Notes under the pieces: model-generated
What the model was told of the DNA's origin: nothing
The model's database searches: none
Seen by the model: the letters and a program-made list of their open reading frames with translations, nothing else
Translations under genes and position numbers: made by a program
In this document: positions 2,030 through 56,875 of the stretch, piece after piece
Numbering within the stretch: position 1 is the first letter of the stretch
How the letters are laid out: each line of letters starts with the position of its first letter
Source of the DNA: a virus
IMG/VR virus record: IMGVR_UViG_3300017565_000003
Length of the DNA: 64,000 nt
Strand: one strand, 5' to 3'

Positions 2030-2086
2030 AAAATGAAAGAATTTAACACTAAATAAATATTATATTTTAAACAAAGGAGAGCAGAA

Positions 2087-2269
2087 ATGAATAATACAGG
2101 ACTTAAAGATAAAAACGGCAATGAAATTTACATCGGATCAAAAGTAATGCTTCAAGGTAATGAATATGACGTTATTATCAACGATTTCAACAAGAGAATT
2201 GCAGTTGATAGTGAATTAGGTCAAGGATGGTTGATTGATGTTCATAATGAGTGTGAATTAATTCAATAA
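2087..2269 (+). CDS. Short YopX-like protein
   Basis: TGLKDKNGNEIYIG motif. Confidence 0.65.
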   Translation: MNNTGLKDKNGNEIYIGSKVMLQGNEYDVIINDFNKRIAVDSELGQGWLIDVHNECELIQ

Positions 2270-2299
2270 AATGCACGTTAGATTCAGAATTTAAGGAGG

Positions 2300-5200
2300 A
2301 TGCAAATCATGTATTTAATATTTGATAAGAAAGATAAGGAAGTTATTGTAACAAAGGATTATGAAGTTTACCAAAACCAATTGGAGTCACTAGGATCTCA
2401 CTCAGACTGTAATTATTTTCACATGATGTCTGTTAACAAAGATGAATTAAATGAGTTTACAACAAAAACAAAATTTAAATCCTATGTAAAAGTATATTTA
2501 TAAACTATATACAAAATGAAAGGAAAAAACATATGAGTAATTTAATTAAAAAAGAAAAGCTACTGTTGGAAATATTGAGTGATATTGTAGATATAATGGA
2601 TTCTGATGTGGGAGATAAAGATTATATTCGTACTAAAATCGAAGAATTAAAAGAACAATTAGAATACGCATCAATATAAAATCTAGGATTTAAACAGTTA
2701 ACAAATCACAACAAATCATAAAATAATCTGTAATTTTGCAACTTAACCAGGCACTATCCCATGTAATCATCATAGTATACAGTATCAAGAACAAAGGGAG
2801 TTGCTTAAAGATGAATTTAACACTTAAATATGATTGTGAAATTACAGAATATATGGTTATTCCAGAGGGAACTGAAGTCAAACTATATGGGGATTGGAAC
2901 GAATACGATGGATTTACGGCCATTGAATACCAAGGTGAAGTCTATTACTTAAATGATCAATATTTTGTAGAAGTTCCGGTTGCTGCTTTGTGATAAACTG
3001 TAAATAATAATCATTTTAACTTGAATACAAGGAGGAAATTAAAATGGACTTAAAAATGAAGAATGATCTTATTGACGAAATTAGATTTTCTATACCTAGT
3101 AAAAGAATGCTGGAGGTAACTAATAATCTTGCGGTTAGAAATCCAAATAATGATGAATTAATTTATTTAAAACAACGACCTAATTTCGAAGATACTCCTT
3201 TGTCAGAGTATATTGAGTATAATGAACATCATGATATGTATTATGAATATGAAGAATTGTTAACTAAGTCTGTAATAATTGATAAATCATTACTTAGACC
3301 AAGAGGAAGAGAAGCTTTGGAAAAGTTAAAATAAAATAAAAGAAATGATTTATCTAGAATAGGGGAATTGAGAAAATGTTTTTTATTATATTAAATACCC
3401 TGTTAATTCTTTTCGCTGTGTATTTAATAGTTGAAGTAATAACAGGTAATCCTAAAGACTATTTTTATTATGATAAGGAAACTGGTGAGATCAAAGAAAA
3501 GAAAAAGAAGGTGTTGACTACTGTTTTACCATATTTAGTCTTTGTTGCCTTCTTCTCGCTTATTGTCCAGGGAGTATTTTAAATTAGTTTTAAAGGAGAT
3601 GATTTAATTGACTAATTTTGAATTATGCAATCAGGAAGAAGCAACACATGTCAGAATTACTAATAAGTCAGATGCCAAACTAGTAGATGTAACCTTCGGA
3701 GAAGTCTATGAGTATAAATTTGATGACTCGGAAGATGAGATGACACATTTCCTTGAGAATGATAAAGGTGAATTACTATATGATTTTGAGGTAATTTTAA
3801 GTTGTGAATACTTGAAAGAGATTAATTAAAATACTAAGGAGTATCCAACATGAAAGAACTAGATGAACGACAAAAAGCATTTATTGATCTTTGGAAAAGT
3901 GGACACAGATTTCTAACAGAAGAAGATATGAAAAATAGAAATCATGGAATGTACAAAGAAGAAGCTGGATTTTATGAGGGAATGACAATTGAAGGAATGA
4001 AGTATCTAGCTAGAAAAGGTGATCTGACTGTAGAAGGTTTGAAATTCACTGAGGAAGAATTAGAAATATTCTTTAGTGTTATAAAATTCATGAGACAGTT
4101 TAAATAAAAGTCTGATTTTATACCAAAATAAATCAATATATAGTGTGTGTTTTGATTAAACAACACTATATGTAGTGTGTTATTTGAATGGGAGGTATAT
4201 ATTTATGAAAATTAATATAATTGAAGGCAAACATACAGATGAAAACATACAAAAATCGTATCAATATATAGTAAATCTATTTAGAAAAGAACAGATTGGT
4301 AAGGAAAGTCAGCCTAAAACCTAATTTTATACTTTTGAATGATTTTTAACCAGGTGTTATATTATCCTCAAACAAATAAAGGAGTGATTACTATCAACGC
4401 AAATATACCGTTCATTCTGTTTTATGAATTAGAAAAAGATGACTTAAACAATATAGTCAACCTATCTAACAATTTAATTATGTTTGATAGACAGTTAAAA
4501 GAAATAGAAGATAAATACTTCTTAGATTTGCGTAATATGAGTTACTGTGAAGTTGTAGAATTTATTGAAGTTCTGGATCAAAAATTGTTTGAATTAATTG
4601 AATCAAAGAGTGCGTAAGCTGCACTCATACATAATATAAATAAACTTAATGTAAGGGTGGTATAAAAAATGGAATTAGCGAGAGTTGAAACAGCGTTTTA
4701 TAAAACATTTAAAGAAAAAGAACACCTTATCCAGCAATTGAAACGTAAATACGATGAAGTTAAACTAACTTTCTTAGAAAATATGATCATTTATCAATAC
4801 TATGAAAAGGCTGAACACGAGTAAATATAAGTAATTTTAATCGAATTATGTACAAGGCACGAGCTTTAAGAAAAAATGTAGAATCTTAGGCTTATTTGAA
4901 TATGGATTTTTATAAATAAATTTAATATAAACTATTGTATTTTTGTTGGTTGTTGTATATAATAAGTTTGTAAGGTAAAAACAACCAACGGAGGAAACAA
5001 TTATGGAATTAAAAAAGGTGGTGGGTACAAATGTAACCCATATAGCAGAGGCAAGATACAGAAACTTTACTGGAACTAACTTAGCTATCGATGAATCATA
5101 CATAGCAAAACCAGCAGCCAAAAAGAAAACTCCAGAGGATATTCGTAAAGGTATGATTTCTGGCTATATGAAGATGTTAAGTAACTTTAATTGATAAATA

Positions 5201-5552: not shown

Positions 5553-5788
5553 TTGAAATAGAAAAGGAGTGAAATCTTGGTGAAATTCTTAAAGAGTTTA
5601 TTTAAAAGAAAAAAGAAAAGAGAAAATGAACCATCATTCGAGCAATTCCAAAAACTCGAAGGTGGTTACCTGTATAAAACTTCTGACGGAGACTGCATGT
5701 TATTTAAGAGTAATGATAAGTCGTAGTTTAAAGGAATTCAATATGAAATTAGGATTTCATTTAAATAAATTTAATAGGAGGAATAAAG

Positions 5789-6241
5789 TTGATTAAAATT
5801 ATTGAAGGAGATATTTTAAAAGCAAGTGAAAATATAATTGGGCATCAGGTAAATTGTCAGGGAGTAATGGGAGCCGGACTAGCTAAACAATTAAGAGATA
5901 ATAGTAAAGTGCTCTATAATAACTACCGATCTCTATGCAATAGAGCTAATCCATATGACTTATTGGGTACTGTTCAGATAGTCTGTGTTGCAAAAGATAA
6001 GTATGTAGCTAATATTTTCGGACAATTAAACTATGGTAGGCAGAAGCTAAGATATACGGATTATGATGAATTACGAAAGGCATTGGAGGATCTAAAGAGG
6101 ATAGCAATTAAGGAAGAATTGTCAGTTGCTCTACCTTATGGAATCGGTTGTGGTTTAGCTGGAGGAGATTGGGACGTTGTAAGCTCAATAATCAAGGAAG
6201 TATTTAGTAACTTTGATATAACGTTATATAAGTTTAATTAA
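5789..6241 (+). CDS. Macro domain (ADP-ribose binding/hydrolase) protein
   Basis: GDIL, HQVNCQGVMGAGLA, ALPYGIGCGLAGGDW motifs. Confidence 0.9.
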   Translation: MIKIIEGDILKASENIIGHQVNCQGVMGAGLAKQLRDNSKVLYNNYRSLCNRANPYDLLGTVQIVCVAKDKYVANIFGQLNYGRQKLRYTDYDELRKALEDLKRIAIKEELSVALPYGIGCGLAGGDWDVVSSIIKEVFSNFDITLYKFN

Positions 6242-6276
6242 AACAGAAATTGTATCCAGAAAGGAGTCTATAACAG

Positions 6277-8156: not shown

Positions 8157-8160
8157 TTGT

Positions 8161-8916
8161 TTGATAGAAGTAAATAAAATATATAATGAGGATTGTCTTG
8201 AAGGTATGTTAAATATTGACGATGAGTCGATTGATATGATACTTTGTGACCTTCCTTACGGTGTGACAGCACGTAATAAATGGGATCAAATAATTCCTTT
8301 TGAGCAGTTATGGGAGCAATACAACAGAATTATTAAAGATAATGGTGCAATTGTGCTTACTGCAGTTAAACCTTTTTCAGCAATGTTAATTATGAGTAAT
8401 CCTAAAATGTATAGGTACGATATTATCTGGAGAAAGAATAAAAGCACAGGATTCTTGAATGCTAAGAAAATGCCACTTAGACAACATGAAGAAATATTAG
8501 TTTTTTATAAGAAAACACCTACATATAATCCGCAAAAGACAACTGGACATAAACCAGCGAATAGTTATACTAAACATACAAGTGATGGAACTAATTACGG
8601 TAAGACAAAAACTGGAATCAGTGGTGGAGGTCAAACTGACAGATATCCTACAAGTGTTTTGGATATAAAAGTAATGAACAATGATGATCCAAATAAATTT
8701 CATCCAACACAGAAACCCGTTGAATTATTTGAATGGCTAATAAAAACTTATACGAATGAAGGGGATCTAGTATTAGATAATTGTATGGGAGCAGGTACTA
8801 CTGCTATTGCTGCCAAACGAACGAATAGAAAATGGCTAGGGTTTGAAACTGAACGTGAATATTTTGAACTTGCTAATAAGAGATTAGATAATATAAAAGT
8901 AAACTTATCATTTTAA
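8161..8916 (+). CDS. N6-adenine/N4-cytosine DNA methyltransferase (beta class)
   Basis: DLPYG catalytic motif N-terminal, HPTQKP, VLDNCMGAGTT SAM-binding motif. Confidence 0.9.
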   Translation: MIEVNKIYNEDCLEGMLNIDDESIDMILCDLPYGVTARNKWDQIIPFEQLWEQYNRIIKDNGAIVLTAVKPFSAMLIMSNPKMYRYDIIWRKNKSTGFLNAKKMPLRQHEEILVFYKKTPTYNPQKTTGHKPANSYTKHTSDGTNYGKTKTGISGGGQTDRYPTSVLDIKVMNNDDPNKFHPTQKPVELFEWLIKTYTNEGDLVLDNCMGAGTTAIAAKRTNRKWLGFETEREYFELANKRLDNIKVNLSF

Positions 8917-8918
8917 CA

Positions 8919-8966
8919 TAATACATATAGTGTTATTTAACATTACTTACATACTACATATAGATT
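8919..8966. promoter_or_regulatory. Tandem NrdR-box-like sites
   Basis: ATACATATAG (8921) and CTACATATAG (8954). Confidence 0.5.
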
Positions 8967-9018
8967 TAATTTAATATAAAATGGAATTTTTATTTGAAAT
9001 ACATAGCAGGGGGAAATC

Positions 9019-10427: not shown

Positions 10428-10473
10428 AAATCTAAATAAAAGTACAATTTTATCTTAAATAAGGTTAATTTAG

Positions 10474-10577
10474 AAAACTAAGCAATATCAAGGGATTCCA
10501 TAAAAACGCCTTAGAAACCTTGTTATATCAACGTTTATCAAGTCTATATTTAAGAAATGGCTTAAAATCAACGAAAA
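10474..10577. repeat. Three 24-bp quasi-palindromes with exact 40-bp period
   Basis: AAAACTAAGCAATATCAAGGGATT (10474), GAAACCTTGTTATATCAACGTTTA (10514), GAAATGGCTTAAAATCAACGAAAA (10554). Confidence 0.7.
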
Positions 10578-10712
10578 TCATAAAAATGACCAAAAATAAT
10601 TAAGATAAAATTCGTATTTTAATTAAAAAGAAGGTCTCTAAAGACCTTAGACGAACTCTCACCTTAGTTTATATTCTGGATATAATATGACAAGAAAGAA
10701 ATTGTGCTGTGT

Positions 10713-10829
10713 TTAGACTAATTTTTGGTTTATTTTTCTCAACATAAAGATTATATAAGCACTAAATGAGCTGGACATAATTAGACTTAAAACTCCTAGG
10801 TAAATTAAAATTCTAAATTGTTTATTCAT
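10713..10829 (-). CDS. 38-aa single-transmembrane peptide, type I toxin-like
   Basis: MNKQFRILIYLGVLSLIMSSSFSAYIIFMLRKINQKLV; AAAGGTGA RBS; hairpin plus U-run at 10625-10648. Confidence 0.55.
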   Translation of the reverse strand: MNKQFRILIYLGVLSLIMSSSFSAYIIFMLRKINQKLV

Positions 10830-11309
10830 TAATTTCACCTTTTCCAAGTTAGATAACTATATTGTTCACTAAGTAGTGAATTATTATAAGTAAAAACAAA
10901 TTTATTAATACACTTCTAAATTTAGTTAGTAAGAAATATCTTATATTAACTAAGTCTAAAGGAGTGTTTTTTTATGTTGGGAAAAATGAGTTCAAGAGTG
11001 TATTAACAATTATCATGTAATACGTTTCAAAAAACTTTGACTTATAGCAGTAAAAATACTATTATAAATCTAAGGAATAAATTCAAAAAAAAATTTACTG
11101 TTATTCTGACGGTTCAGTGTGTCCAAAATGCCATAGAAAAGTGCATTAAGTATTGAACTTTAATAGTTTTAGATATATAATTCAGAATATATACTATAGT
11201 CAATGGATAGAATGATACTAGATACTTAATAATTTGGGTTTACTTCAAAGCCAAATTTCAATTAGATACTTTCTAATCCACCGTTTACTTAAACTAATTT
11301 ATTGCAAAT

Positions 11310-11342
11310 AAAAAAGAAGCAGAGCTGCAACTCTACTTCTTC
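11310..11342 (-). terminator. Rho-independent terminator of the 11360-11569 gene
   Basis: GAAGTAGAG-TTGCAG-CTCTGCTTC followed by U-run on the - strand. Confidence 0.7.
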
Positions 11343-11359
11343 AAGAGATAATACAAAAA

Positions 11360-11569
11360 TTACTTAGCAGGAGTTAGGGTTGAATCGATGTCCAATGCAA
11401 AAACATTAATATCAATTCCTAATTCCTCACTGATTTGCTTCATGAAGAAAGGATCTTCAGCAAGAACACTTGATAAGAGTGATTCGATTTTTAAAGATAA
11501 TGCTTCAAGGTGGTCTTGAGATAACTCTTCCTTCAGGGTAAATAGTAGGTTTAGCGGCAATTTTGTCAT
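11360..11569 (-). CDS. Hypothetical 69-aa protein
   Basis: AGGAGG RBS, own promoter and terminator. Confidence 0.75.
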   Translation of the reverse strand: MTKLPLNLLFTLKEELSQDHLEALSLKIESLLSSVLAEDPFFMKQISEELGIDINVFALDIDSTLTPAK

Positions 11570-11617
11570 GATCTGATCCTCCTGGAATGTGTTTGCATAC
11601 GAAAATATGCTAGTCTA

Positions 11618-11673
11618 ATAGTAATGGTATACGTTAGAATTGTCAATCAATTTAAGACTAATACTATTCGACA
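11618..11673 (-). promoter_or_regulatory. SigA promoter with upstream Spo0A box
   Basis: TTGACA-17-TACTAT (11646-11618); TGTCGAA at 11673-11667. Confidence 0.65.
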
Positions 11674-11780
11674 GTTATTTTATAAATAAACTTAATTGTT
11701 TTACTTGATTTTATTTTACTTTAGTTTATGACTGTGATAAAATAAATTATATGTAAACTAAATTTATAAGAGGTGTTTAT

Positions 11781-13447: not shown

Positions 13448-14497
13448 ATGATGGAGATGTTGACAAATGTTATTCAAATGACTCCACGAGGCGGAGATCC
13501 GAATGTGCTTGATCAAATAGAAAGATACTTACAGAACAAAGGAAACAAAAGTGAAAGAACAAAAGAGTCTTACGCAAGAGATATAAAAGAATTCTTTAAA
13601 GAAATAAGAAAAAAGGAAATTAGTCAACTATCAAGAGAAGATGTTCAATTAAAAATTGATGACTTTGAGGATTTTATTAATAAGAAATTGGACGAAGGCC
13701 AACTTAATAACAAAACGATTAACAGATGTGTTGGCACAGTAAAGACATTGTTAAAGTATCTTAACTCCAAAGGGATTGTAGATGATATATCCTTTTTACT
13801 TAATGGAAGCATTGTTAGATTACCTGAAGTTAAAAATAAATATGGAGCATTAACTGTAGCTGAAGTGAATGAATTGGCAGAATTAGCTCTACACGAAAGA
13901 GAAAAAGGAGAGATTAAAAGACTGTACTTTCTTTTTCTACTTGAAACGTGTGCAAGGAAAACAGCAGCGATGAATATGAAGTGGTCTAATTTTACTGAGA
14001 TCAATGAAAATGATGTTACACTAAGATATATAGATAAGGGCAATAAAGAATTTAAAATTAAGATAGCAAGATGGCTTTATAATGAATTATTAACCCTAAA
14101 AGTAGAAGGTGAGGAAAGAGTATTTAATCTTTCTGAAAATGCAATTCAAAATTCATTTACAAGAATAAAAAAGAAAATGAATATTAGAGAAGAGAGAAAC
14201 ATTGTTATACACAGTATACGTAAATGCGGTGCAACGTTTTTATTTTACAAGACAAATAACATATTGTTTGTTCAAAAGGTTCTTGGGCATACGAATGTAA
14301 ATGTAACCCAAGATTACATCGATGTTCAAGACTACGGTGTAATTGGTGCGGTGTCAACAGCGGGTGAAGTAGGAGTAGAAATCATTAATGAAGTTTCTCA
14401 TGAAGAGTTATTAGCTGCTATAAATTCTTTACCGAAAGACAATCAGCTTTTACTAGCTCTAAAAATCCAAGAATTAAATCAAAACTTGTCACAATAA
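13448..14497 (+). CDS. Tyrosine recombinase-fold protein, YopP/SroD-like
   Basis: N-terminal SAM-like domain; catalytic R (TCARK), K (DKG), HSIR, LGH, Y (QDY); first gene of yopP-Q-R-like operon. Confidence 0.8.
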   Translation: MMEMLTNVIQMTPRGGDPNVLDQIERYLQNKGNKSERTKESYARDIKEFFKEIRKKEISQLSREDVQLKIDDFEDFINKKLDEGQLNNKTINRCVGTVKTLLKYLNSKGIVDDISFLLNGSIVRLPEVKNKYGALTVAEVNELAELALHEREKGEIKRLYFLFLLETCARKTAAMNMKWSNFTEINENDVTLRYIDKGNKEFKIKIARWLYNELLTLKVEGEERVFNLSENAIQNSFTRIKKKMNIREERNIVIHSIRKCGATFLFYKTNNILFVQKVLGHTNVNVTQDYIDVQDYGVIGAVSTAGEVGVEIINEVSHEELLAAINSLPKDNQLLLALKIQELNQNLSQ

Positions 14498-14604: not shown

Positions 14605-15951
14605 TTGGATACGCAAATAAAAAAAGATAAAAGTGAATTTATCAATGATCTTCAAGAAGTGTTTACACAAATTAAAGACAACAAGAAAATTACAGATAAA
14701 ATAAAAACTAACATGATGAAAGTATACAAAACGTTACCTGGTCGAGCACATGGTTATATTCATGGCATAGAAGCAATGAGAGAAGAAGACATTCAATACA
14801 TTGCACTATTGGCAGAACAAACTTATATAGTTACAGGTAAAAGTTTGTCTAATCCTTTAAACACATTAACTGAGCGAGAAATGAAAGAAATTAAATCTAA
14901 TTGGGAAGGTTATCAGTCAAAACAAGAGACTTTCCCTTATACTTTCAAGAATGTAATTAAAATAGCTGATGATGATTTTATTTGTTCAGTTGAAGCGAAA
15001 GATATTAACTACCTTTTTCTTAACGGGTTACTTGAATATAACCCAGAGACTCAACGTGAAGGTCGACAAGTAAAGAGCAGAGATAGTGAAGAGATTATAA
15101 CAGTTCCCAAAGTAATTGAGAAAAACGTAAAAGAAATGGTTGAACTATTAGAGAAAAATGAAATTATCAGTTCTATGATTACTTTCAATGCAAGATTAGG
15201 TACATCGGACAATGAATTAGGTGAGTTAGTTTACAATGAAGAAAATAAAACTTTAACAGTAACAGAAGGTACATTATTAGATGTACTAGATGGATTCCAC
15301 AGGATTAATGCCATAAGTAGAGCGCTAAGAAAAAACCCAAGTATTAATGCAATGTTCAAACTAAATATCTTAAACTACAACAAAAAGAGAGCTATAAAGT
15401 ATTTCTCCCAAATGAACAAAGGTCAAAGTGTTAGTGAATCTCACCTTAAGAAAATGTCTGAAACAAGATATGGCGACTTTATTGCCAAACAAGTACAAAG
15501 TAGTAGTCAATTGAGTGGTAAAGTTGCAGCAGGAGATCATATTTCACCTAACTCAGACTTATTAGTTACATTTAATACACTTTCTGATTCTATAGATGAA
15601 ATATTCAAAGTAGAGGATAGATCAACTGCTTTAAAAATTTCAGAGTATTTAACTGAATTTATTGATACATTATTTGATTGTTATCCAGAAGAATTCATTA
15701 AAGACATAGCTAAACAAAGAGAGAAGTCTTTAATGGGAAGTAATTCGTTTTTTAACGGATACATTAAACTTGCGAAGAATATGTATGATAATAAAATTAA
15801 ATTGAGAAAATTACCTAGTATACTAAATCAATTGGATTTTTCTAGAGATAATAAATTTTGGCAGGAAATAAATATAGTTGATTCGAATCAAAGAATTAAA
15901 TCAAATGCTAAAAGAGTAATTATTAGCGTATTCGATAAATTAGAATTGTGA
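14605..15951 (+). CDS. ParB/DndB-like protein, YopQ/SroE-like
   Basis: YNPETQR and VLDGFHR motifs; synteny between two integrase-fold genes. Confidence 0.75.
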   Translation: MDTQIKKDKSEFINDLQEVFTQIKDNKKITDKIKTNMMKVYKTLPGRAHGYIHGIEAMREEDIQYIALLAEQTYIVTGKSLSNPLNTLTEREMKEIKSNWEGYQSKQETFPYTFKNVIKIADDDFICSVEAKDINYLFLNGLLEYNPETQREGRQVKSRDSEEIITVPKVIEKNVKEMVELLEKNEIISSMITFNARLGTSDNELGELVYNEENKTLTVTEGTLLDVLDGFHRINAISRALRKNPSINAMFKLNILNYNKKRAIKYFSQMNKGQSVSESHLKKMSETRYGDFIAKQVQSSSQLSGKVAAGDHISPNSDLLVTFNTLSDSIDEIFKVEDRSTALKISEYLTEFIDTLFDCYPEEFIKDIAKQREKSLMGSNSFFNGYIKLAKNMYDNKIKLRKLPSILNQLDFSRDNKFWQEINIVDSNQRIKSNAKRVIISVFDKLEL

Positions 15952-15962: not shown

Positions 15963-16937
15963 ATGGCTGAAATGTACAATGAAGAAATTAAAAGAGAATT
16001 TTTAAAAGAATATCCAGAAAAAACTGCTGAGACATACAGTTACGTTTTTGCTAGAAGTAAAGATACAGAAGAGGTTATTGGGAGAGACTTATATACATTT
16101 TCAACAGATGAGATAGTAGACGTTTTAAAAAACTCTAATCACACAACTATAAATGCACTTAGACATACTTGGAATATTATAAAACTTTATTTAGATTGGT
16201 CTGCAAGATATAGAGGAAATAGCATTAATCAAGCAAAAAATATACCTATGGATGAATTAAGAAATTATCTAGACACGACTAAGAAACTATATTTAAATGA
16301 AGATGAAATAATTGATATTGAAGATAAAGCAGCTAATGCACAGGATATAGTTGCGGTTAGACTGATGTTTGAAGGCGTTGGAGGATTCCAAATGTCTGAA
16401 ATTTGTAATTTAAATTATAGTGATGTGGATTGGAACAATAATATATTAAAACTTAGAGATGTTAAATATGGTGAAAGAGAAGTAAAAGTAAGTGATAGAT
16501 GTATTTCGATTATGAAGAGTGCATATGGTCAACAAGTATACCTAAAAGGTAATGGGGAATCTAACGCTAGAAACCCAGAAGCACCTTTGCAAGAATCAGA
16601 CTATATAGTGAAAAATATTCAAACAGGATTAAATAAAAACTTTGATGGTGTAGATCGACATACTATGTATAGAAGAATTTCTACTTTAAGTGAATCGTTC
16701 AATTTACCATATTTAACTCCGAAAGGAATAGAAAAATCAGGTCAACTGTATATGGCCTACAAGTTATACAAAGAATCTGGAAAGTTAGATAATGAAGAAT
16801 TAGAAAAGATTGCAGAAAGATTTAACATGAGAAAAGTGAAGATTAACGGAGCTTATAGATACAATTTTACAACTATGAGAGAATATATAAACTTAGATAA
16901 CATAAATGATTTATATCCTACAGAAGAAACAGTATGA
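15963..16937 (+). CDS. Integrase-fold master repressor, YopR/MrpR/SroF-like
   Basis: MYNEEIKREFL start, L.FEG..G..MSEI.NL, LTPKGIEKSG; catalytic R and HxxR lost. Confidence 0.8.
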   Translation: MAEMYNEEIKREFLKEYPEKTAETYSYVFARSKDTEEVIGRDLYTFSTDEIVDVLKNSNHTTINALRHTWNIIKLYLDWSARYRGNSINQAKNIPMDELRNYLDTTKKLYLNEDEIIDIEDKAANAQDIVAVRLMFEGVGGFQMSEICNLNYSDVDWNNNILKLRDVKYGEREVKVSDRCISIMKSAYGQQVYLKGNGESNARNPEAPLQESDYIVKNIQTGLNKNFDGVDRHTMYRRISTLSESFNLPYLTPKGIEKSGQLYMAYKLYKESGKLDNEELEKIAERFNMRKVKINGAYRYNFTTMREYINLDNINDLYPTEETV

Positions 16938-18330: not shown

Positions 18331-20619
18331 ATGAAAGAGAGAAAATGGTTTAACTTATTTACAGTGTTAATCGTGGCTGCGGTCACTTTAACACTGTATT
18401 TTTCTTATATAATACTAAATTATGATTATATCGGTGCAATGGCCATAATTGAAGATGATAAAGTTACTATTGGAGCAACTGAGCCCCTTACATGGTCATC
18501 TGATAATTTAAATGTTGGTGATGAAATACTTTTAGTTGATGGAAAAGATCCTCTAGAAAATGCCATTATTCAAAAATGGAATATGCTTGAACAAGTAAAG
18601 CATTTAGAGGTTCTTAGTATAGATGGAACAAAAGAAAGCCTTATAGTCGAAGGTAAGTTTGATGGACAAATAGTATTTCACTTTATTGTCCCAATAGCTA
18701 TTTTGATTTTAAGTTTATATTGTAGTTATCTTATATATAAGAGTTATAGAAAGTCAGAGAATTCTGCTGAATCAGCATTGCTGTTAATAGCGTTTTTACT
18801 AACATTTTCTTTAGCTTATATGTGTGGGGGAGCTTCAGCAAGAGGAGATTTATTTTCAAGAACTCTTGTTGTCCCTTTATTACTAGCAACCCCAATACTT
18901 TATTTGCAATTTATGCGAAGATACTATGAGGAAATGAATACTAGATGGTTCAGTAAGTATTGGATATGGGGATGTTATGTACTATTACCAATCAATATAG
19001 TTCTGAGTCTTCTAAGTGGATCTATTAGTTTACCTGGTACTTTAGTTAAACTTATTAACCTTTCAAGTGCTCTGATTGTATTCTTGTTATGCGGTGTTTT
19101 AATATTAACTGGGTTAAAGAAAGTAAAATACAAAACGCAAAAATATATGATAAGAGTATTACTTTTATCTAATATTCTTGCTTTTGCTCCTTTTGTTCTA
19201 TTGTATGTTTTACCATTCGTATTATTTAAAATTGAGATTGTTTCACCTGCATTTCTTACTGGATTCTTGATTATAATACCTTTTTCATTAGTTTATCAAT
19301 TCTTAGCCACGAAAATTTACGATATTGAATTTATTGTTGGTAGGTTTAAGTATTACAGCTTATTAATAACAGTTCCATCCATAATAGCAGTGGCAATTAC
19401 AATGACTGTAGCAACAACCAATTCTACCGTATTCTCTATTAGAATGTTCCTTGTGTTGTTTGGCGTAATGTTTGGAACGCTGTATCTAAAAGAAGTGTTG
19501 GACTACAGATTTAAGCTGAATAAAGTATCTGAGAAAGCAAATTATCAAGACAGGTTGACTGCTTATACTAGAAAGATAAGGGTGGCAAGAAATATCGAGG
19601 AAGTTTCAACTTTACTAAAACAGAATATTACTGACACTATGCTTGTTACCAAGGCGCACAGAGTAAAGTATGATAAAAGCAAAGGAACCTATAAGAGCAA
19701 TACATTCTTGGAGGTTGGTAATGAAGATTATCAACAAGTCTTTAATCAAGCAACTAAAACCCTCGGAGAAATTGTTGAACTAGATAATGGATTTGTTTTA
19801 AATATAGGGGAAACAAGAGGGGATGTTTATTTAATAATAGCTTTATCAGATATTAACACTCCTAAATTAACAAGAGATGAAAAGCAATGGTTGAACAATT
19901 TGGCCTATTATACAAATGTGACTCTTGAGAACTTCATTAAAATTGAAAACTTAATGGATAATCTGGAGGAGCTTGAAAATAATCCTATATGGCTTAATAA
20001 GATTGTTTTTAATCTTGAGGAAAAGCAGCGTTCTAGTTTAGCGAAAGATCTACATGATGCCGTACTACAAGATTTAATTGGATTGAGAAGAAGGATGGAA
20101 ACTCTCTATTTAAAACGAATTCCTACAATGGATGAAGAAACTGAAAGAGAGATCAATAGCTTTATTGTAGGTATGACTGATGCAATTGAAACAACTAGAA
20201 AGACATGTAACGAATTAAGACCACATTTATTATATGATCTAGGCATTGAAAAAGCTTTGAATAAGCTTGCAGATGAACATAATAAAGATGGTCAAAACGT
20301 CATTCTTACAACAAATAACCTAGATAGTTCAATTAGCGAAGAAGTACAATTAAATATTTATAGAATTGCACAAGAACTCCTTAACAACGCAGAAAAGCAT
20401 TCTTTTGCTAAAACAGTTAGATTAGTTGCTGTTAAGATAAAGGAAAAAGTTGTACTTCACTATGAGGATGACGGTGAAGGTGAAGATTTAGAGTATATTC
20501 TTAACAAAGAGGGAAGTATGGGACTGTCCGGTATTAGAGAAAGGGTTCGCATACTTAATGGTGATATTAAAATAGAGACAGAGCCAGGACAAGGATTTAA
20601 AGTTATAGTTGAAATTTAG
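18331..20619 (+). CDS. comP: ComP-like sensor histidine kinase
   Basis: 762 aa; N-terminal TM, PDZ-like loop (LNVGDEILLVDG), polytopic TM region, HisKA_3 H-box KDLHDAVLQ, N-box ELLNNAEKHS, EDDGEG, GSMGLSG. Confidence 0.88.
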   Translation: MKERKWFNLFTVLIVAAVTLTLYFSYIILNYDYIGAMAIIEDDKVTIGATEPLTWSSDNLNVGDEILLVDGKDPLENAIIQKWNMLEQVKHLEVLSIDGTKESLIVEGKFDGQIVFHFIVPIAILILSLYCSYLIYKSYRKSENSAESALLLIAFLLTFSLAYMCGGASARGDLFSRTLVVPLLLATPILYLQFMRRYYEEMNTRWFSKYWIWGCYVLLPINIVLSLLSGSISLPGTLVKLINLSSALIVFLLCGVLILTGLKKVKYKTQKYMIRVLLLSNILAFAPFVLLYVLPFVLFKIEIVSPAFLTGFLIIIPFSLVYQFLATKIYDIEFIVGRFKYYSLLITVPSIIAVAITMTVATTNSTVFSIRMFLVLFGVMFGTLYLKEVLDYRFKLNKVSEKANYQDRLTAYTRKIRVARNIEEVSTLLKQNITDTMLVTKAHRVKYDKSKGTYKSNTFLEVGNEDYQQVFNQATKTLGEIVELDNGFVLNIGETRGDVYLIIALSDINTPKLTRDEKQWLNNLAYYTNVTLENFIKIENLMDNLEELENNPIWLNKIVFNLEEKQRSSLAKDLHDAVLQDLIGLRRRMETLYLKRIPTMDEETEREINSFIVGMTDAIETTRKTCNELRPHLLYDLGIEKALNKLADEHNKDGQNVILTTNNLDSSISEEVQLNIYRIAQELLNNAEKHSFAKTVRLVAVKIKEKVVLHYEDDGEGEDLEYILNKEGSMGLSGIRERVRILNGDIKIETEPGQGFKVIVEI

Positions 20620-20648: not shown

Positions 20649-20668
20649 GTTAAATATGAAAATAGTTG

Positions 20669-20697
20669 TTTACAAAGATAAACTTATCTATTATTAT
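20669..20697 (+). promoter_or_regulatory. SigA promoter with palindromic operator in the spacer
   Basis: TTTACA-17-TATTAT enclosing AGATAAACTTATCT. Confidence 0.7.
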
Positions 20698-20885
20698 ATA
20701 GTTAAGAAGTTAATAAAAGGAAGGTTTTATCTTAATTTTCTTCGTGGAAAACGGAGGAAATGGAAGTATACGTGAGAATGAGGGAGGTGTGAAATGGATT
20801 TTAATGATATTAGAGAAATTGTAGATCCTGTTGAAGGATTGTGTTATGAAAATATTGAAAACATTAAAAAGAGAGAGGGAACGCA

Positions 20886-21568: not shown

Positions 21569-21858
21569 GGAAAAAGATGCTATAAATTTACTAAAGGAAG
21601 TAAATTTATATAAAATGTGAGATTTAAAGAGAGGTGAGATACATATGAAAAACCTATTCAAAAGAAAAAGATGTTTTCAATGTGGTGAACCATTGAGACT
21701 ATTCGAAAAGTTGGACTTCTGTAGTTATGATTGCTGTAAGCTTTATAGGCAGATTGAAAAAGAATATCTTGAATCAAGAAAGAAAATAAAATGAAATCTG
21801 ATTTTTAATTGAAGATGATTAAGCAATTGAATAGTCTACATATATAAGTTAAATTTCC

Positions 21859-22022: not shown

Positions 22023-22051
22023 TTTACAAAGCTAAACTTATCTATTATAAT
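22023..22051 (+). promoter_or_regulatory. SigA promoter with operator in the spacer
   Basis: TTTACA-17-TATAAT enclosing AGCTAAACTTATCT. Confidence 0.75.
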
Positions 22052-22183
22052 TAGATTATAAATTTAATGAGGTGGTAAAAATATGTTAAAGGTGAAAAAA
22101 TAAACTTGAGAAGTTAGTAAAAACTACTCGAAATCAAGGTAATACGGATGATCAATTACAGCTATTTATCAAAATTTGCTTAG

Positions 22184-25665: not shown

Positions 25666-25872
25666 GTGGAAACTTTGAAAATAATAACAAAAGATAACTT
25701 TAACAGAGATTTATTTACAGAAGTAGTTGTTGCAGAAAACGTCAATGAGTTTATAGGGAGTCAACTAGTAAAAGAATGGAATAATAAACACTGGAACGAA
25801 CATTCTGATTTTTATTTGGCATTAGTTGAAGATGAATATCAGTTATATGATGGATATGCTGGTTTGTACTAA
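25666..25872 (+). CDS. Hypothetical protein, paralogue of 32920-33117
   Basis: KIITKDNF.RDLFTE..AENVNE.IG..LVKEWN.KHWN.HSD shared. Confidence 0.75.
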   Translation: METLKIITKDNFNRDLFTEVVVAENVNEFIGSQLVKEWNNKHWNEHSDFYLALVEDEYQLYDGYAGLY

Positions 25873-25928: not shown

Positions 25929-25990
25929 ATGGACTATGTTTCACAAGAATTTAAGATAAAATTAAAATTTTACTTAGAAAGGGGAATGAA

Positions 25991-27770: not shown

Positions 27771-27963
27771 ATACATACGATACATAATTGATACTGTAGG
27801 ATTTAATTATTGGTATAAGTGGTGGCTAGGTTCTGATATTAGTTTGTTTGATAATTGTAGCTGGGCAGCATATAAAAGAAATAGCGAATTATAAAAATAA
27901 ATTTAACATAACTATTGATTAATAAAGATAAATTTAATATAATTATAAATGAGGAGGTAGGAA

Positions 27964-33117: not shown

Positions 33118-33153
33118 AACTTACTATTTAACTAAAAGAAAAGAGGGAGTAGT

Positions 33154-34214: not shown

Positions 34215-34260
34215 AAAATTGAATTCACAAACTAAATCTAAATAAAAACATACTTTTATT

Positions 34261-35087: not shown

Positions 35088-35243
35088 ATTATAACACAAA
35101 TTTTAAGGAGGTGAGAGCATATCGACATTAATAAATCACCACCAGGCTAGATACAATTAGCTTTTTACCTAGAACACATACAAGTAAAATTAATTATTTA
35201 TAATATAAAAATACAACGGATATTATTAGGAGGAAATACATAT

Positions 35244-46302: not shown

Positions 46303-46995
46303 ATCAAGTTAAACAATAAAGATAAACTAATCATACTTATAATATTCGTAAATATAGTCGTAGCAGCATACATACTAACAAATTTACTACAGTCAGATTC
46401 AAAAATTGACGAAAATGAGCAAGAAAATGAAGTCTCAATAAAAGAGAAAATTTATTTAGAGTTAAACGGATGGCTTATAGAACCTTATGAGCCATCTCCA
46501 ATCAATAATCTAAGAAAAGGTCAACAATTAGCATTACAGAACACATTAGATAAATACAAAGCAGCTAGACAAAAACAGGATAGATTAGCAGAGTTAGAAA
46601 GACAAAGGAAACTAGAAGAAGAAAGAAAAAGGAAGGAGGCGGAGAAACGTGAAAAAGCGAAACAAGTTAGCAGGAGTAATCAGAAAGAACGTCAAAGAAT
46701 TAATGCTGTCGTTACCAGTTATACAAATGGCGTAGAGTCAACAGGGAAATCACCTGGTCATCCTGCATATGGAATTACTGCAAGTGGACGAAAAACAGAG
46801 AGAGGTGTAACAGTCGCTTGTCCTCCTTACATTGAACTTGGAACATGGGTAGTTATTGAGAATGTAGGAAAACGAAGATGCGATGATCGTGGAAGCGATA
46901 TTATAGGAAATAGATTTGATGTCTATATGAAGTATTTAGATAATGCTATTAATTTCGGAAGACAAGAACTAGAAGTGATTATACTGGAGGGATGA
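46303..46995 (+). CDS. Membrane-anchored 3D-domain protein (YorM-like), probable ATC start; not in ORF track
   Basis: 230-codon open frame: TM, coiled coil, YGITASG..VACPP..CDDRGSDI.GNRFDVYM; AAGGAGTG RBS then ATC. Confidence 0.8.
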   Translation: MKLNNKDKLIILIIFVNIVVAAYILTNLLQSDSKIDENEQENEVSIKEKIYLELNGWLIEPYEPSPINNLRKGQQLALQNTLDKYKAARQKQDRLAELERQRKLEEERKRKEAEKREKAKQVSRSNQKERQRINAVVTSYTNGVESTGKSPGHPAYGITASGRKTERGVTVACPPYIELGTWVVIENVGKRRCDDRGSDIIGNRFDVYMKYLDNAINFGRQELEVIILEG

Positions 46996-48989: not shown

Positions 48990-50052
48990 AAATGTTGAAG
49001 GATTAATTAGAGTTTTTGGAGATAAGATCAAGACAGACAATCACCTACTTCTATTGTATTGGTTACATGTAGACGAAGTGGAGATGGATAAAGAAACCAT
49101 TTCCACTAAGGACTTCTTACAAAATGCAACTAATCCGGCTGATATTATTAATGCGAAAATTATGTTGGATTGTACCAGAGGAGTAATTAAATGAGTTTAC
49201 TAATAGGAGTTATTATTGGAATAGTTTTACGAATGGTATTTGATTGCATAATATCTATGTATAAACATTCAAAAATTAACTAAATATACATTAATTATAC
49301 ATATATTATGAATAAATATACACTAATTTCAACATAAAATGATTGTTTTAAAGAGAGGAGAGAGAATAAATGTCTGAAATAAGATGTAACAAAGTTTCAG
49401 TAATTGTCTACACAGAGAATCCTAAAGAAAGACAAAAGTATTTTAATTTATTCAAATTTATTTTTCAAGGTCAAATAACCAAAGAAATACAATCATCAGA
49501 TAGAAAAGAGTTTGAGACTTATAGATTCAGATTTAGATTTTATCCTAAACTCCAAAGTGCTAGAGGATATAAAGCACATTACGTCTTGAATCTAACACAA
49601 GATATTGAATTTCATCAGTGTGTAGCTTTACCAAATACAAGTATGTTTGACTCATTAAAACGTGATAAACAGTGGCAAGAATTATTTGAAGATATGGGGG
49701 AGTTGTAAGAATGAATTGTGATGAATGTAACTGTTTCACTGAATATTGGACAGAAGAAGATGATGGTAATTTATGTCCTAAATGTTATGCTGATTTAGTT
49801 GGGTTGAGCGTAGAGGAAGTTTGGAGGTGTGTGTAATAAATGTCAATGCTTGATGCTAATGATTGTCAATTGGGCGAAATTTATAAGGATGTAAATTCTG
49901 AAATGAGATTTATTGTAGTTTTAAGAGATGGTAGTAAATGTTTTCAAGTTTTAGGGGAAGAAGATACCTATACAACTCAATTAAATCCTAAATATCATAT
50001 AAGAATACAGGGGGAAATAAATGAAAATCGAAAGAAAATGGTCTATGCCTAA
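48973..50052 (+). other. Small hypothetical ORFs (48973-49194, 49370-49708, 49840-50052)
   Basis: ORF track with RBSs. Confidence 0.6.
49258..49322. promoter_or_regulatory. ArgR/AhrC-box-like sites
   Basis: TGTATAAACATTCA (49258), ACATTAATTATACA (49288), TGAATAAATATACA (49309). Confidence 0.45.
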
Positions 50053-50548: not shown

Positions 50549-50605
50549 ATTATACATAACTAAATAAAATAATCGTTTCATTAAAACTTTAAAAGGAGAG
50601 ATTAA

Positions 50606-51628: not shown

Positions 51629-51692
51629 ATTATACATAATATAAATAAAATGTTTCTATTAAACAGTGTCAAATAAATTAAGAGGTGATCGA

Positions 51693-52523: not shown

Positions 52524-52737
52524 AGTCAATTTCTTAATTAGTGGTAATTATCTAATTGATGCAGAGAATGAAGAAAAGGCTAGAGACATTGTTAATGAGT
52601 TTATTAACGGTCGATGGAAAGAATTAGAGCTACTATTGCAAACTGGAATTAAAGATGATGATTATACAACTGACGTAATTGAAATTTAAATAAAATTTAC
52701 ATTTTATCTTAACATAAATAAATTAAATTAATATGAG

Positions 52738-53469
52738 GTGATCGATATAAGATACTTTGGAGGAAAGGCTAGAATTGCAAAGCCTATAGTTGAATATTTA
52801 AAGTCGATTAGGGAAGAAGGTCAGCCATATATAGAACCATTTGTAGGTGGAGGTTGGGTAATGTCACTCATGGATGGCGAAAGAATTGCTTGTGACAAAC
52901 ATACATATTTAATTGCAATGTACAAAGAAATTCAAAATGGTTGGATTCCACCTACTAATCTTACAAAGGAAGAATATGAGTATATTAAAAATAACAGAGA
53001 TGAAAAACCGTATCTTACTGGATTCGTAGGTTTCGGCTGTAGTTTCGCAGGAAAATGGTTTGGTGGGTTTGCTTCAAGCAAAGATAGAAATTATTGTTTA
53101 AATGCTCATAACTCCATAATGAAGAAGATGGAAACAATGAAAGACGTTAAATTTTATGATTGTGATTATAAAGAAATAAACCCAAAAGGATTATTAATAT
53201 ATTGTGATCCTCCTTATCAGGGAACTACTCAGTATGGCTTAGTGGGAAACTTTGATTCAAATGAATTTTGGGATGTAGTAAGAGAATGGTCAAAAGATAA
53301 TATGGTGGTAGTTAGCGAATATAACGCACCAGAAGATTTTGTTGAAGTGTGGTCTAAAGATGTTAAAACAGATATAAGAAATAAAGATAATAAAAAAGAG
53401 CAACGTATTGAAAAATTATTCTTACATAAAAGTAATTTAAAACAAATTATACATAATGAAACTGCTTAA
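52738..53469 (+). CDS. Dam-like DNA adenine methyltransferase (true start probably ATA 52747)
   Basis: RYFGGK, YIEPFVGGG, YCDPPY. Confidence 0.85.
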   Translation: MIDIRYFGGKARIAKPIVEYLKSIREEGQPYIEPFVGGGWVMSLMDGERIACDKHTYLIAMYKEIQNGWIPPTNLTKEEYEYIKNNRDEKPYLTGFVGFGCSFAGKWFGGFASSKDRNYCLNAHNSIMKKMETMKDVKFYDCDYKEINPKGLLIYCDPPYQGTTQYGLVGNFDSNEFWDVVREWSKDNMVVVSEYNAPEDFVEVWSKDVKTDIRNKDNKKEQRIEKLFLHKSNLKQIIHNETA

Positions 53470-54055
53470 AAGCTATATTATAATCAAAAATAAACTAAAT
53501 TATAAAGGGGATGGATAACATGAACAAGTTCTCGATTGGCGAAAAGGTTGTGGTAACAGGTAAGGAAGGTATTGGGACAGTTAAAACTATTAAGAAAACA
53601 GAATTTATCAACGAGGATCTTAATGTAAGCACTTCGTATGAATACTTAGTACAAGTCGGTGAGTCCTGGAATAAAAAGTGGTATCAAGAATCAAATTTAA
53701 GTTATTATTTAAATGATGAAATCTCAGTAAATAAGGTATTAATTAACGTAAATTTATTACATAATTTAGAGTTTGCTAAACAATTAAAATATGAGAATGA
53801 TAAATTGGAGATAAAAAAGAATGCGAAAAGTTAAGTTAGAGCTACATAATCATAAAGGTGAAGTCGTCAGTGAAGATGAATTGGTTATTTCTGAAGGTGA
53901 TAAGATTATTGTTAGTGTAAATAAGGATGTTACTCAGAAGGAATTCACTGAAATACATAATATTGTTGATAAATTTCTTACAACAGATAGCAAATTACTT
54001 TCATTACAAAATTATGTAGAGCTGAAGATTTTAAAAGTAAAATAATCAACATGTA

Positions 54056-54102
54056 TGTCTATATGTAGTGTCTAACTTAGTCACAACCACTATATATAGA
54101 CA
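54056..54102. promoter_or_regulatory. Tandem NrdR-box-like sites
   Basis: CTATATGTAG (54059) and CTATATATAG (54090), 31 bp apart. Confidence 0.65.
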
Positions 54103-55367
54103 TAAAATTAACATAAAACGAGAGTTTTATTTAAAGGAGATTGATAGTATGAAATTCATTAAAAGTTCTGTCCCAGATGTAAAAGTAGAATCTGCCAACA
54201 GTGATACATTTGAAATTAAATCAATGCAATATTTAGACGAATCAGATGACAGAGTTTATTTAAAATGTGCCGAGTATGTAGAGCAGTTTAAAAGAGGATT
54301 TGTGTGTGACTTGGTGTGCGAATATGAAACTGTTAACGCCAATCAAGAGGATAGTGAAACACAAACTGATAACATTAGAGACTTAGTTTTAGTATACGTA
54401 AATAAAACATATGACAATGAATACGTACCAGTTTTTGAATACATATTTTTCAAATAGAACAGGAGGAAATTAGTGAAGAAGTATTTTGTAAGATGTTGCT
54501 CTCAGAACGATCAGAATATAACACTTAAAATTAAAGCTGAGAGTGAAGACGCAGCAAGGGATGAGGCATATAAAACATATAAAGTTAAGCAAGTATTTAA
54601 TATAAGCGAGGAAACACCAAAGGTTAATTGTGAATGGGGGAGAAAACACTCTTCTCCACATATTATCCAGCGTAAAGGTAAGTATTTGACGGTGTTTTGT
54701 TAATTTATTTGAAAGGGGTAAACTATGAAATCTTACATATCTGAGCATACAAAAGATTCACTTAAGCAGCAGACATCTGTTTCAATAGATTTAGTGGATG
54801 AATTAAGGCGAGCATTTGAAGAGGATAGAGAAGCGATAAAAGATAGTAAATGGCCTGAATACGAAGCATTTATAGATAAGATCCTGGTTAGACTTGAGCA
54901 ATTAAAAGCTGAATTGGAAGATATATAAAATAAAAATAAATTTATCTAATTTAGGTATTTACATAAATAAAATTAACTGTTATATTATTAGTACAGACAG
55001 AAACAACCACGACAAGCTAATAAGAGAGTGAGATACAACACTCACTCTTACTACATACAAAGGGGATAGAGAGTTGCAAAACGTAGTGTTTGAAACTTGG
55101 GCTGTTGTTGGAATGGGATTAGGAGTCTTAGGGTTATGGGGATTAGGAACAATGTTCACTATGGCTATTTTAATAGCTGGCAGCAGAGCAGATGACTTGA
55201 TGTATGGGGAGGATCAATACAATGAACAATCATGAGAAAGTGTTAGAACTTAGACAACAAGAAAAAGAATTGATCAGGCAGCGAGATAATATAGAAGATA
55301 TGTTAGAGGAAATTTACTTTAGGATTGATAAGTTACAAGAAGAAACACAGCGTGAAAAGTTACATAA

Positions 55368-55418
55368 TTGATTAAATGGTTTATCTCGAATATAATCTAA
55401 TATAAGAACAAATATTCG
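55368..55418 (+). promoter_or_regulatory. SigA promoter followed by a near-consensus LexA box
   Basis: TTGATT-17-TATAAT; AGAAC-AAAT-ATTCG at 55405-55418. Confidence 0.55.
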
Positions 55419-56875
55419 GGTAGGTGCTAAATGTGAAGGCGAACGTTCCAGATGAATACGAAGATACAGCTTATGAATATACATATAATAGGTTAATGGT
55501 TGATGTATTAAATAAGAAAATTGCTAGAGCTGAATCAGAAGGTAAAGACAGTTATAAGAATTGGCTAGAAGGTAAATTGAAACAAGTGTTAGCTGAACAA
55601 GGTGAGATGAGAAAGTTTCTAAAGGAACATAGGATCAAGGTAACTGAGATTGAAGAGGTTGATGATTTATTCGTAATGTATAAGATTTTTGTTCACAGTG
55701 AGAATGGTGGATATAAAGAAGGTCACCAGAAGATATGGCGAGCAGCATTAAAGAAAAGATTAGCTGATAAATTAAATGAGTTGTTGAGTTAGCATAAATA
55801 GAAACTTTACATTAAGGAGAGATGATGATGAGTGAGATAAATTTTATCAAAAGAAATGAAAATGGAAAGTTGGAAGTGAACAGAAATGAGTGGTCGATGT
55901 TCAGAAATGGTTTATTATCAATGGCTAGTAACGAAAGGGAATTAGAGTTTATCGGACAACTCGTGGAAGATTTACAAATGGAGTATGAAGAAAGATTAGA
56001 GGAATTTGAAGAATTGCTGTAATTTAGAAGCCAAGGAAATAGTTCATAAACAAACTTACCTACTTTGAAAGGTGGTGAGTGATACGAGTAGACTTAACAG
56101 GGTATGTATGGTTTGCACCGAATATATTGATGGTATTGTACATAGTTGTTTCTTTCCAGTTGATAAAAACGATAGATTAGAAGTCACAGGTCATGAGATG
56201 TGTTTGAGAAATACTATTAGTAGCTGGGATGGTAAGAAGCGTGGACTTGAGGAGACTAAGAGAGTGTTAGGATTGGAGGTTGAGTAGATGAGGTTGCAGT
56301 TAGATGATAGATATTCTATTAGTGCTGACAAGATGAATTTCACATTACATAGATTAGATGATGTTAAAGATAAAGAAACCGGTGAAGTAACTGGACAGAA
56401 GGAGAAGGATATTGGCTACTTTGGGTTACACCTGGATCATGCTTTAAAACGCTATGCAACTGAGAAGATTAGGGACACAGAAAATGTCAATGTTGATGAA
56501 TTGGTTAGTGTGTTAAAAGGCTTAGAAAGACACATTGAGCGAGTCGTTAAAAAAGAAAATATCTATTATGTTCCGAAGGAGGGGAAAGAGTGAGTTGGAT
56601 TGACAGAGACCTACAATCAAAACAGGTATTAGAATCGGATTTAAGCAACCGTGAAAGAGAATTAATTAAGCTGTATGTCAATTGTGCTATCAAAGAAAGA
56701 GTTAATCCTAAACGTTGGCAATACTTTGACGGTATTCAAACAGGGATAGCACAGACATTGAGGCTACTTGAAAGAGAAGATATATGGGATTTAATTGCTT
56801 ATGAATTTTCTTATCATGATGAATTAATATAAATTTCGGTTTTTATCTTAAATAAATTTAATATGAGGTGATTAA

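Follow-up and report, generated by a model that had tools for sequence, protein, structure and literature searches.

A repeated TAAAA-N6-TTTTA dyad between the genes of large Firmicutes phages: a probable docking site and joint of gene exchange

Introduction

The question raised by the viral DNA studied here is why one short palindrome recurs between so many of its genes. The window, i.e. the whole stretch of 64,000 nucleotides that was analysed from IMG/VR virus record IMGVR_UViG_3300017565_000003, carries numerous copies of the inverted repeat TAAAA-N6-TTTTA, in which two conserved arms enclose six variable bases. A first-pass annotation, made from the letters of the window, had noticed the copies next to stop codons and ribosome-binding sites and had suggested that they bound accessory genes in the manner of integron cassettes. 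The present analysis indicates that the repeated palindrome is real, that it typifies a broad family of large siphophages of Firmicutes, to which SPbeta, Perkons, Geobacillus E3 and Sophrita belong, and that its copies are, on balance, probably the core of a dyad site of about 28 bp on double-stranded DNA, at which a dimer of a phage protein most likely docks and which in the SPbeta group serves as a joint of gene exchange.

All long open reading frames (ORFs) of the window lie on the plus strand, and its GC content is about 30%. It represents a large phage that has yopP, yopQ and yopR homologues of the SPbeta type; among the named phages, Psychrobacillus phage Perkons comes closest (helicase identity 61%). 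Searches of phages, IMG/VR, GTDB genomes and JGI metagenomes yielded no close relative; the best helicase match reaches 88% at the amino-acid level, and identities of about 70-78% were seen for core DNA.

Enrichment of the palindrome between genes

Twelve perfect copies of TAAAA-N6-TTTTA are present in the window, compared with 1.44 in dinucleotide shuffles (maximum 6). Ten of them are intergenic, while 0.37 would be expected from a first-order Markov model (1000 runs, maximum 3) of the window's own intergenic DNA (about 10 kb, 28% GC), which provides an AT-matched null. The first-pass annotation had named beforehand a lack of excess over such a background as one observation that would count against its proposal, and the excess just given is what was found. 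The enrichment is limited to the six-base spacing: the window has 2, 4, 0 and 1 copies with spacings of 4, 5, 7 and 8 bases, and SPbeta has 0-3 at spacings other than 6. The eleven perfect copies reported earlier were all recovered, together with a twelfth that had been missed, at 15989 inside the yopR-like gene; this copy may be a chance occurrence or non-functional. As had been noticed, the spacer is unique to each copy, all 12 perfect-copy spacers being different.

A 28-bp profile trained on 191 sites, taken from relatives only, was used with a cut-off score of at least 10 and found 28 sites in the window, compared with 2.0 per simulated window. The first-pass annotation had also listed 20 near copies, 14 of which pass the profile, while those at 5744, 9663, 22406, 22684, 23725 and 32889 are doubtful; in turn, the profile adds 15989, 35152 and 46439. 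A T at position 5 of the half-site is tolerated in the window (9 sites, 3.0 expected).

The sites have a characteristic position relative to the genes. About 25 of the 90 intergenic gaps of the window are occupied by a site, the TAA of the motif is the stop codon of the upstream gene in 8 of the 28 sites, a stop codon lies within 12 nt in 13, and in 19 the site ends 17-37 nt ahead of the next start codon. The earlier impression that the core replication genes (35.2-46 kb) are free of the motif holds in the profile scan, which found no sites in this interval, nor any beyond 56.8 kb; the degenerate sites at 35152 and 46439 flank the replication block.

Distribution among phages

SPbeta contains 34 perfect copies (1.9 expected), Clostridium phage c-st 31 (7 in the control), Geobacillus E3 30 (7 in the control), Clostridioides phage LIBA6276 19 (6 in the control) and Bacillus phage Sophrita 23, compared with 1 copy of the reversed control pattern, and relatives from IMG/VR and from genomes have up to 10 perfect copies per 21 kb (0.3-0.5 expected). 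In Perkons, 13 of the 17 perfect copies are intergenic and in the early arm, and four are intragenic and in the late arm. In the genome of B. rugosus the excess over the control sits in an SPbeta-like prophage and the chromosome elsewhere is at the control level, and thus the site is a feature of phages and not part of a host regulon. A GenBank record labels two copies of the motif as stem-loops.

A symmetric duplex site

Symmetric information reaches 6 bp beyond each 5-bp arm (T at -6 and -4, pyrimidine at -5, A at -1), and the spacer has K and M at its edges, which results in the consensus TYTnnA-TAAAA-K-N4-M-TTTTA-TnnARA of about 28 bp with an 11-6-11 layout. The likeness to the core site of a tyrosine recombinase, originally drawn from arms and spacer, is therefore matched at greater length: two inverted arms of about 11 bp surround a centre of strictly 6 bp, as compared with 6-8 bp in sites of the Xer/dif type.

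An extended hairpin was considered and ruled out by the positive stem energy and the flanks that do not covary. The free energy of the 5-bp AU stem is +0.7 to +1.8 kcal/mol, with a mean of -1.95 kcal/mol for 28-nt folds, and across 203 distinct sites the pairing of left with right flank is as good between sites as within a site, without covariation.

The two half-sites vary separately. In Perkons they have the form TRAAA, with the AA, GG, GA and AG combinations in 17, 10, 11 and 14 sites, and mixed TAATA/TAAAA sites of a Lysinibacillus prophage number 12 and 12 in the two orientations. Half-sites that vary independently, and in either orientation alike, speak against an RNA-level element, against a promoter and against a folded attC site, and fit a protein dimer. 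Among the variants, Perkons (loci L035-L037) has 10 TGAAA-N6-TTTCA sites and 25 mixed sites, and the Lysinibacillus prophage (L045, L059) and locus L026 use TAAWA, mostly as one TAATA and one TAAAA half-site, with both orientations equally frequent; judged from these sequences, a drift of the half-site specificity of the putative binding dimer between lineages would fit.

Homology between relatives ends at the site

The position of the site at gene junctions could be studied in 19 SPbeta-like loci, including SPbeta, phi3T, SPR, BUCT082 and Goe12. Of the 672 distinct ends of homology blocks, 30% lie within 20 bp of a perfect site, compared with 1.9% of random positions. The ends cluster at -2 to 0 and at +15 to +17 of the motif, i.e. 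at the outer edges of the arms, and are fewer at the borders between arm and spacer, which indicates that crossovers occur in or beside the arms and that the centre is inherited as a whole; the comparison locates junctions no more finely than to the arms. When distinct intergenic gaps of at least 16 nt were compared, a breakpoint was present in 68 of 81 gaps with the motif (84%) versus 100 of 194 other gaps (52%; odds ratio 4.9, p 3e-7). Thus, breakpoints of gene gain, loss and replacement gather at the motif in the SPbeta-like relatives, as the first-pass annotation had anticipated.

The order of the spacers is collinear in 18 loci, and in 10 of 20 adjacent spacer pairs the DNA between them is unrelated in content: six content types were found between GATCAA and TTTGTC, and eight between TATTCC and TTCAAT. 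Some junctions join unlike spacers. Replacement between the same two copies, the centres of which stay fixed, indicates that the sites act as fixed exchange joints among related phages. Because each position retains its own spacer across related phages, exchange is possible between copies with like spacers, and a recombinase that tolerates unlike spacers, as had been proposed, is not required. Spacers shared by Nanhaiella/Robertmurraya prophages are uninformative in this respect because they are not syntenic and have no flank homology.

The region of the mtbP methyltransferase gene offers an example. In phi3Ts and SPbeta this gene is the region's sole stretch without differences, reaching from one site (GATCAA) to 7 nt past the next (TTTGTC), and the DNA outside is unrelated or diverged; a second methylase, specific to phi3T, is found between the centres TATCTC and GATCAA. 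In the laboratory hybrid Hyb2phi3Ts-SPbeta (L080 2473-3876, compared with L081 and L040) the crossover took place within a 1.4-kb stretch between two sites that is identical in the parents, and it cannot separate the models discussed below.

Taken together, the site is symmetric, does not form a hairpin, is restricted to phages and is associated with junctions in the relatives.

Sites of the window

The sites found in the window are as follows, without strand (coordinates cover the 16-bp core; profile scores in parentheses).

Perfect sites:
4105-4120, spacer GTCTGA, TAA is the upstream stop codon (22.0)
8977-8992, spacer TGGAAT, next start codon 26 nt past the site (17.2)
10437-10452, spacer GTACAA, 12 nt past a stop codon (24.0)
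10606-10621, spacer TTCGTA, followed by a terminator-like hairpin
15989-16004, inside the yopR/mrpR-like gene (13.4)
20714-20729, spacer GGAAGG, about 20 nt downstream of a copy of the sigma-A-like promoter (15.3)
25957-25972, spacer TTAAAA, next start codon 18 nt past the site (18.2)
30719-30734, spacer GACAAG, next start codon 21 nt past the site (13.1)
34243-34258, spacer ACATAC, next start codon 20 nt past the site (23.0)
49335-49350, spacer TGATTG, next start codon 19 nt past the site (19.2)
52691-52706, spacer TTTACA, 4 nt past a stop codon (23.7)
54114-54129, spacer CGAGAG, next start codon 19 nt past the site (16.7)

Degenerate sites:
2054-2069, half-site TAAAT (14.3)
2267-2282, TAA is a stop codon (11.0)
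2677-2692, right arm ATTTA, TAA is a stop codon (11.1)
3337-3352, right arm ATTTA (15.1)
6239-6254, TAA is a stop codon (17.3)
21611-21626, right arm ATTTA (13.2)
21792-21807, left arm TGAAA (11.0)
26814-26829 (11.4)
30310-30325, strong flanks (18.6)
33115-33130, right arm ATTTA, TAA is a stop codon (12.8)
35152-35167, just upstream of the replication block, newly listed (13.0)
46439-46454, just downstream of the DNA polymerase gene, newly listed (19.2)
50565-50580 (17.2)
51646-51661 (12.4)
53467-53482, TAA is a stop codon (12.2)
56830-56845, half-site TAAAT, TAA is a stop codon (11.5)

The 16-mer of the site at 10606 recurs in Perkons at 25340. Its spacer, TTCGTA, was considered as a sign of homology between the two phages and rejected: about 0.7 chance matches are expected and the spacer is missing there in three other prophages, so that the sharing is probably due to chance.

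Candidate binding proteins

Three adjacent genes of the window are of interest as sources of a binding protein:
13448-14497, plus strand, Xer-like tyrosine recombinase, homologue of SPbeta YopP/SroD (Pfam Phage_integrase, E-value 1.3e-13)
14605-15951, plus strand, DndB/ParB_N-like protein, homologue of SPbeta YopQ/SroE (Pfam DndB, E-value 5e-19; 38% identical to yopQ)
15963-16937, plus strand, homologue of MrpR/YopR/SroF, a master repressor with a recombinase fold (E-value 1.6e-52 to PDB 8bj6; Pfam MrpR_N_CB and MrpR_C_cat)

The window thus contains adjacent Xer-like, DndB/ParB_N-like and MrpR-like genes, as is typical of SPbeta-like modules. The yopP-yopQ-yopR-like gene order is common to the window, SPbeta and Perkons (ORF64-66), and the trio is also present in E3 and in four prophages; alternative names of the three genes are sroD, sroE and sroF (PMC10769878).

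The protein encoded at 13448-14497, which the first-pass annotation had put forward as a recombinase, indeed retains the full catalytic set (R170, K197, H255, R258, H281 and Y290). The 11-6-11 layout of the site suits an Xer-like YopP/SroD homologue, and from its sequence this protein may be the binder, which is, however, rather less likely than not. YopQ/SroE is a second candidate, which is weakened because Sophrita has 23 sites and a DndB homologue was not found there. MrpR/SroF was considered and rejected because it reads a different, asymmetric box of 24-26 bp as a monomer; the MrpR box, ATATACATATTWTTTGTATTTGT, was recovered in nine of ten promoter regions obtained by chromatin affinity purification sequencing (ChAP-seq). 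The boxes bound by MrpR/YopR/SroF in SPbeta have been described as SPBRE (PMC10516654; bioRxiv 10.1101/2025.11.27.690993). They resemble the studied site in that they are repeated intergenic elements of the same phage family and are bound by a protein with a recombinase fold; however, SPBRE is asymmetric (about 24 bp), is read by a monomer, has about ten copies and differs in sequence.

Other features of the window

Several further elements were observed. The octamer ATACATAA has 28 copies in the window (8.7 expected), 26 of them on the plus strand, and lies both between and inside genes (e.g. at 9295, 43892, 50552, 51632 and 53449); a bias of this size towards one strand points to a signal that is carried by the transcript or linked to the direction of transcription. 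The octamer contains UACAU, the cleavage motif of B. subtilis MazF, and Perkons encodes a toxin of the MazF family. A sigma-A-like promoter (TTTACA, 17 bp, TATTAT/TATAAT) is present in three copies (20651-20697, 22023-22068 and 34649-34704), each with a palindrome AGATAAAC/TTATCT within its spacer that is probably the operator for a different repressor. An A-rich motif, AAATAAAYTWAAT, precedes the Shine-Dalgarno sequence of many genes by a few bases (e.g. at 5760-5775, 27930-27950 and 56850-56865), and SPbeta-like loci carry a similar A-rich TAAAAATAAAAT.

A pair of 86-bp inverted repeats (78% identical, 4099-4182 and 8914-8998) flanks about 4.8 kb, and each repeat has one TAAAA-N6-TTTTA site at its outer end as well as CACTATATGTAGTG-like palindromes. 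The small paralogous genes at 25675-25872 and 32920-33117 have 79% DNA identity, and their homology spans only from the ribosome-binding site to the stop codon, excluding the flanking sites. The region 10428-11780 (1.35 kb) contains two perfect sites and no long ORF on the plus strand; a GC-rich terminator-like hairpin lies past 10621, and neither a tRNA nor an Rfam match was found in this region, nor in a screen of the window as a whole. Unusual cargo for a phage is an ORF of 762 amino acids with the histidine-kinase domains HisKA_3 and HATPase_c (18331-20619). In Perkons, ORF215 (L037 32124-34697), annotated as 'RNA-dependent RNA polymerase', occupies the position of SPbeta yonO; its product is probably a DNA-dependent RNA polymerase of the single-subunit YonO type that serves the late arm.

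Discussion

The sequence comparisons on balance favour a site at which a phage-encoded protein dimer would dock on about 28 bp of duplex DNA between genes. In the SPbeta group, homology between phages preferentially ends at such a site, and single genes or small groups of genes are replaced between the same two copies, while each copy retains its own six-base centre. The cassette idea of the first-pass annotation thus survives in part, as cassette-like joints are supported in SPbeta-like relatives, whereas the integron mechanism has to be given up. By analogy with the relatives, the sites of the window itself would be used likewise.

Several observations weigh against this interpretation. The junction evidence comes from SPbeta-like relatives, and the window is without a close relative. 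Furthermore, 52% of the gaps that lack the motif are also junctions, and thus gene boundaries recombine anyway. Spacers with co-inherited flanks diverge by 5.7%, compared with 5.7-7.4% for the flanks, which gives no indication that the centres are under selection (a looser test suggested purifying selection on the spacers, which was dropped once both flanks were required to be homologous), and the conserved centres may simply reflect recent common ancestry. With 16-28 identical bp at a junction, recombination by short homology would be feasible, and no dedicated enzyme would be needed. In addition, no protein tracks the motif cleanly when the presence of YopP-like and YopQ-like proteins is compared with that of the motif: Sophrita has the motif and a DndB/YopQ homologue was not found, c-st has the motif and a close YopP homologue was not found, and Lactococcus phage 949 encodes a protein like YopP (28% identity) and shows no enrichment specific to N6. 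As for the candidate recombinase, SPbeta YopP has a lysine in place of the second catalytic arginine, and Brady and colleagues (2023) reportedly describe SroD as an auxiliary repressor.

It should be noted that a joint of gene exchange does not imply an enzyme of its own. That strand exchange is site-specific, and not short-homology recombination across 16-28 identical bases, appears doubtful at present. Somewhat less probable still is a dedicated system of addressable cassette exchange, in which a YopP/SroD-family recombinase would act on the 28-bp dyads and the six-base centres would serve as position addresses. If it existed, co-infecting or resident relatives would swap single-gene cassettes only between equivalent junctions, and the gene order would stay intact while accessory genes, including anti-defence genes, were shuffled.

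Two known systems are instructive here. The pdif sites of Acinetobacter plasmids, which bound dif modules and are recombined by XerC/XerD (PMC6449649), are likewise numerous 28-bp sites of 11-6-11 layout in accessory regions, with small gene modules between two sites in varied contexts. However, pdif resembles the host dif, uses host XerC/XerD and has asymmetric C and D arms, whereas the studied site has symmetric AT-only arms, is not enriched in the host chromosome, lies in phages between stop codon and ribosome-binding site, and has only a candidate recombinase. Its arms also appear unlike the Bacillus dif sequence. The promoter/stem-loop (PeSL) cassettes of T4-type phages (PMC2839356, PMC4122927) share with the studied site a short conserved intergenic motif in hyperplastic regions, at which close phages differ by insertions, deletions and replacements. 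PeSL, however, combines a strong sigma-70 promoter with an effective, stable terminator hairpin and recombines by homology, while the studied site has a position-specific centre and forms no stable hairpin, and its orientation-independent variants argue against a promoter.

The strongest alternative, although unlikely, is a purely regulatory site that the lysogeny repression module would use as a dispersed operator. From the sites, YopP/SroD or YopQ/SroE would silence or roadblock early transcription units, and crossovers would be a by-product, the sites being the sole conserved 16-28 bp at gene boundaries and selection favouring intact genes. Dispersed operators are known from KorB-OB of plasmid RK2 and from the stoperators of mycobacteriophage L5, in which tens of copies of one short site are spread over the intergenic DNA of one replicon; the studied phages, too, have many intergenic copies per replicon, and their host has none in excess. 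The co-occurrence of the yopP-yopQ-yopR trio speaks for such an operator, as do the location of sites downstream of promoters and between early genes, the bias towards the early arm seen in Perkons, the frequency of junctions in motif-free gaps, the absence of extra constraint on the spacers and the compatibility of Hyb2 with ordinary homologous recombination; moreover, the abstract of the study by Brady and colleagues (2023) is said to state that sro repressors bind multiple sites. On the other hand, MrpR/SroF binds a different box, and the analogy with KorB/ParB would point to YopQ/SroE, yet Sophrita has its 23 sites without a detected DndB/ParB_N homologue. Stoperators adjoin stop codons as well, but they are asymmetric and orientation-dependent, unlike the studied site. 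A roadblock would also leave unexplained the overlap with stop codons, the abutment of ribosome-binding sites and the sharp clustering of homology ends at the arms. The docking may primarily serve repression or exchange.

An element of the polycistronic early mRNAs that acts at the RNA level, for instance by enhancing translation, by directing processing or by weak termination just ahead of the ribosome-binding site, is very improbable. The distance of 19 of the 28 sites from the next start codon would be in accord with it, and in Sophrita the Shine-Dalgarno sequence follows the site after about 3-6 nt. Nevertheless, the hairpin is unstable, A-C mismatched variants are no rarer than paired ones, asymmetric variants are equally frequent in both orientations relative to transcription, symmetric flanks would be meaningless in single-stranded RNA, and an Rfam match is absent.

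The probability of an integron-like array, in which a spacer-tolerant recombinase would insert and excise promoterless cassettes at folded attC-like sites, is smaller still. Integrons with attC/attI and IntI indeed have in common with the window single-gene units in one orientation, bounding sites of a recombination type and a tyrosine recombinase gene; many junctions bear the motif, and some link unlike spacers. The best solved match of the 13448-14497 protein is IntI4, limited to its C-terminus (E-value 2e-5). An integron array is headed by an IntI-type integrase beside an attI site and a Pc promoter; the gene at 13448-14497 sits inside the yopPQR-like operon and not at the head of an array, and an attI/Pc platform was not seen, although no search was aimed at one. 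In contrast, attC sites are imperfect single-strand hairpins (R''-L''/L'-R') of conserved structure with extrahelical bases, and the folded hairpin that the integron analogy calls for was not found: the sites are symmetric duplexes of 16-28 bp with positive stem energy, no stable fold, no covariation or compensatory change and independent half-sites. Their spacers are position-specific and collinear among phages, and inserted gene sets are flanked by different spacers, unlike the insertion of a circle at one site. Finally, an artefact of base composition, arising from AT-rich DNA between genes that end in TAA, can practically be discounted, for although the intergenic DNA has only 28% GC and the motif starts with TAA, the excess over the intergenic Markov model is about 27-fold, is confined to the six-base spacing and recurs across many phages.

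SPbeta has been a model phage for 50 years, and its 34 perfect copies of the motif are not mentioned in the SPbeta and Perkons literature examined. If the copies are docking sites and exchange joints, they would explain how accessory arms can remain collinear while individual small genes turn over, and YopP/SroD or another conserved protein would gain a concrete target. The sites would then also offer ready-made gene swapping in engineered Bacillus phages.

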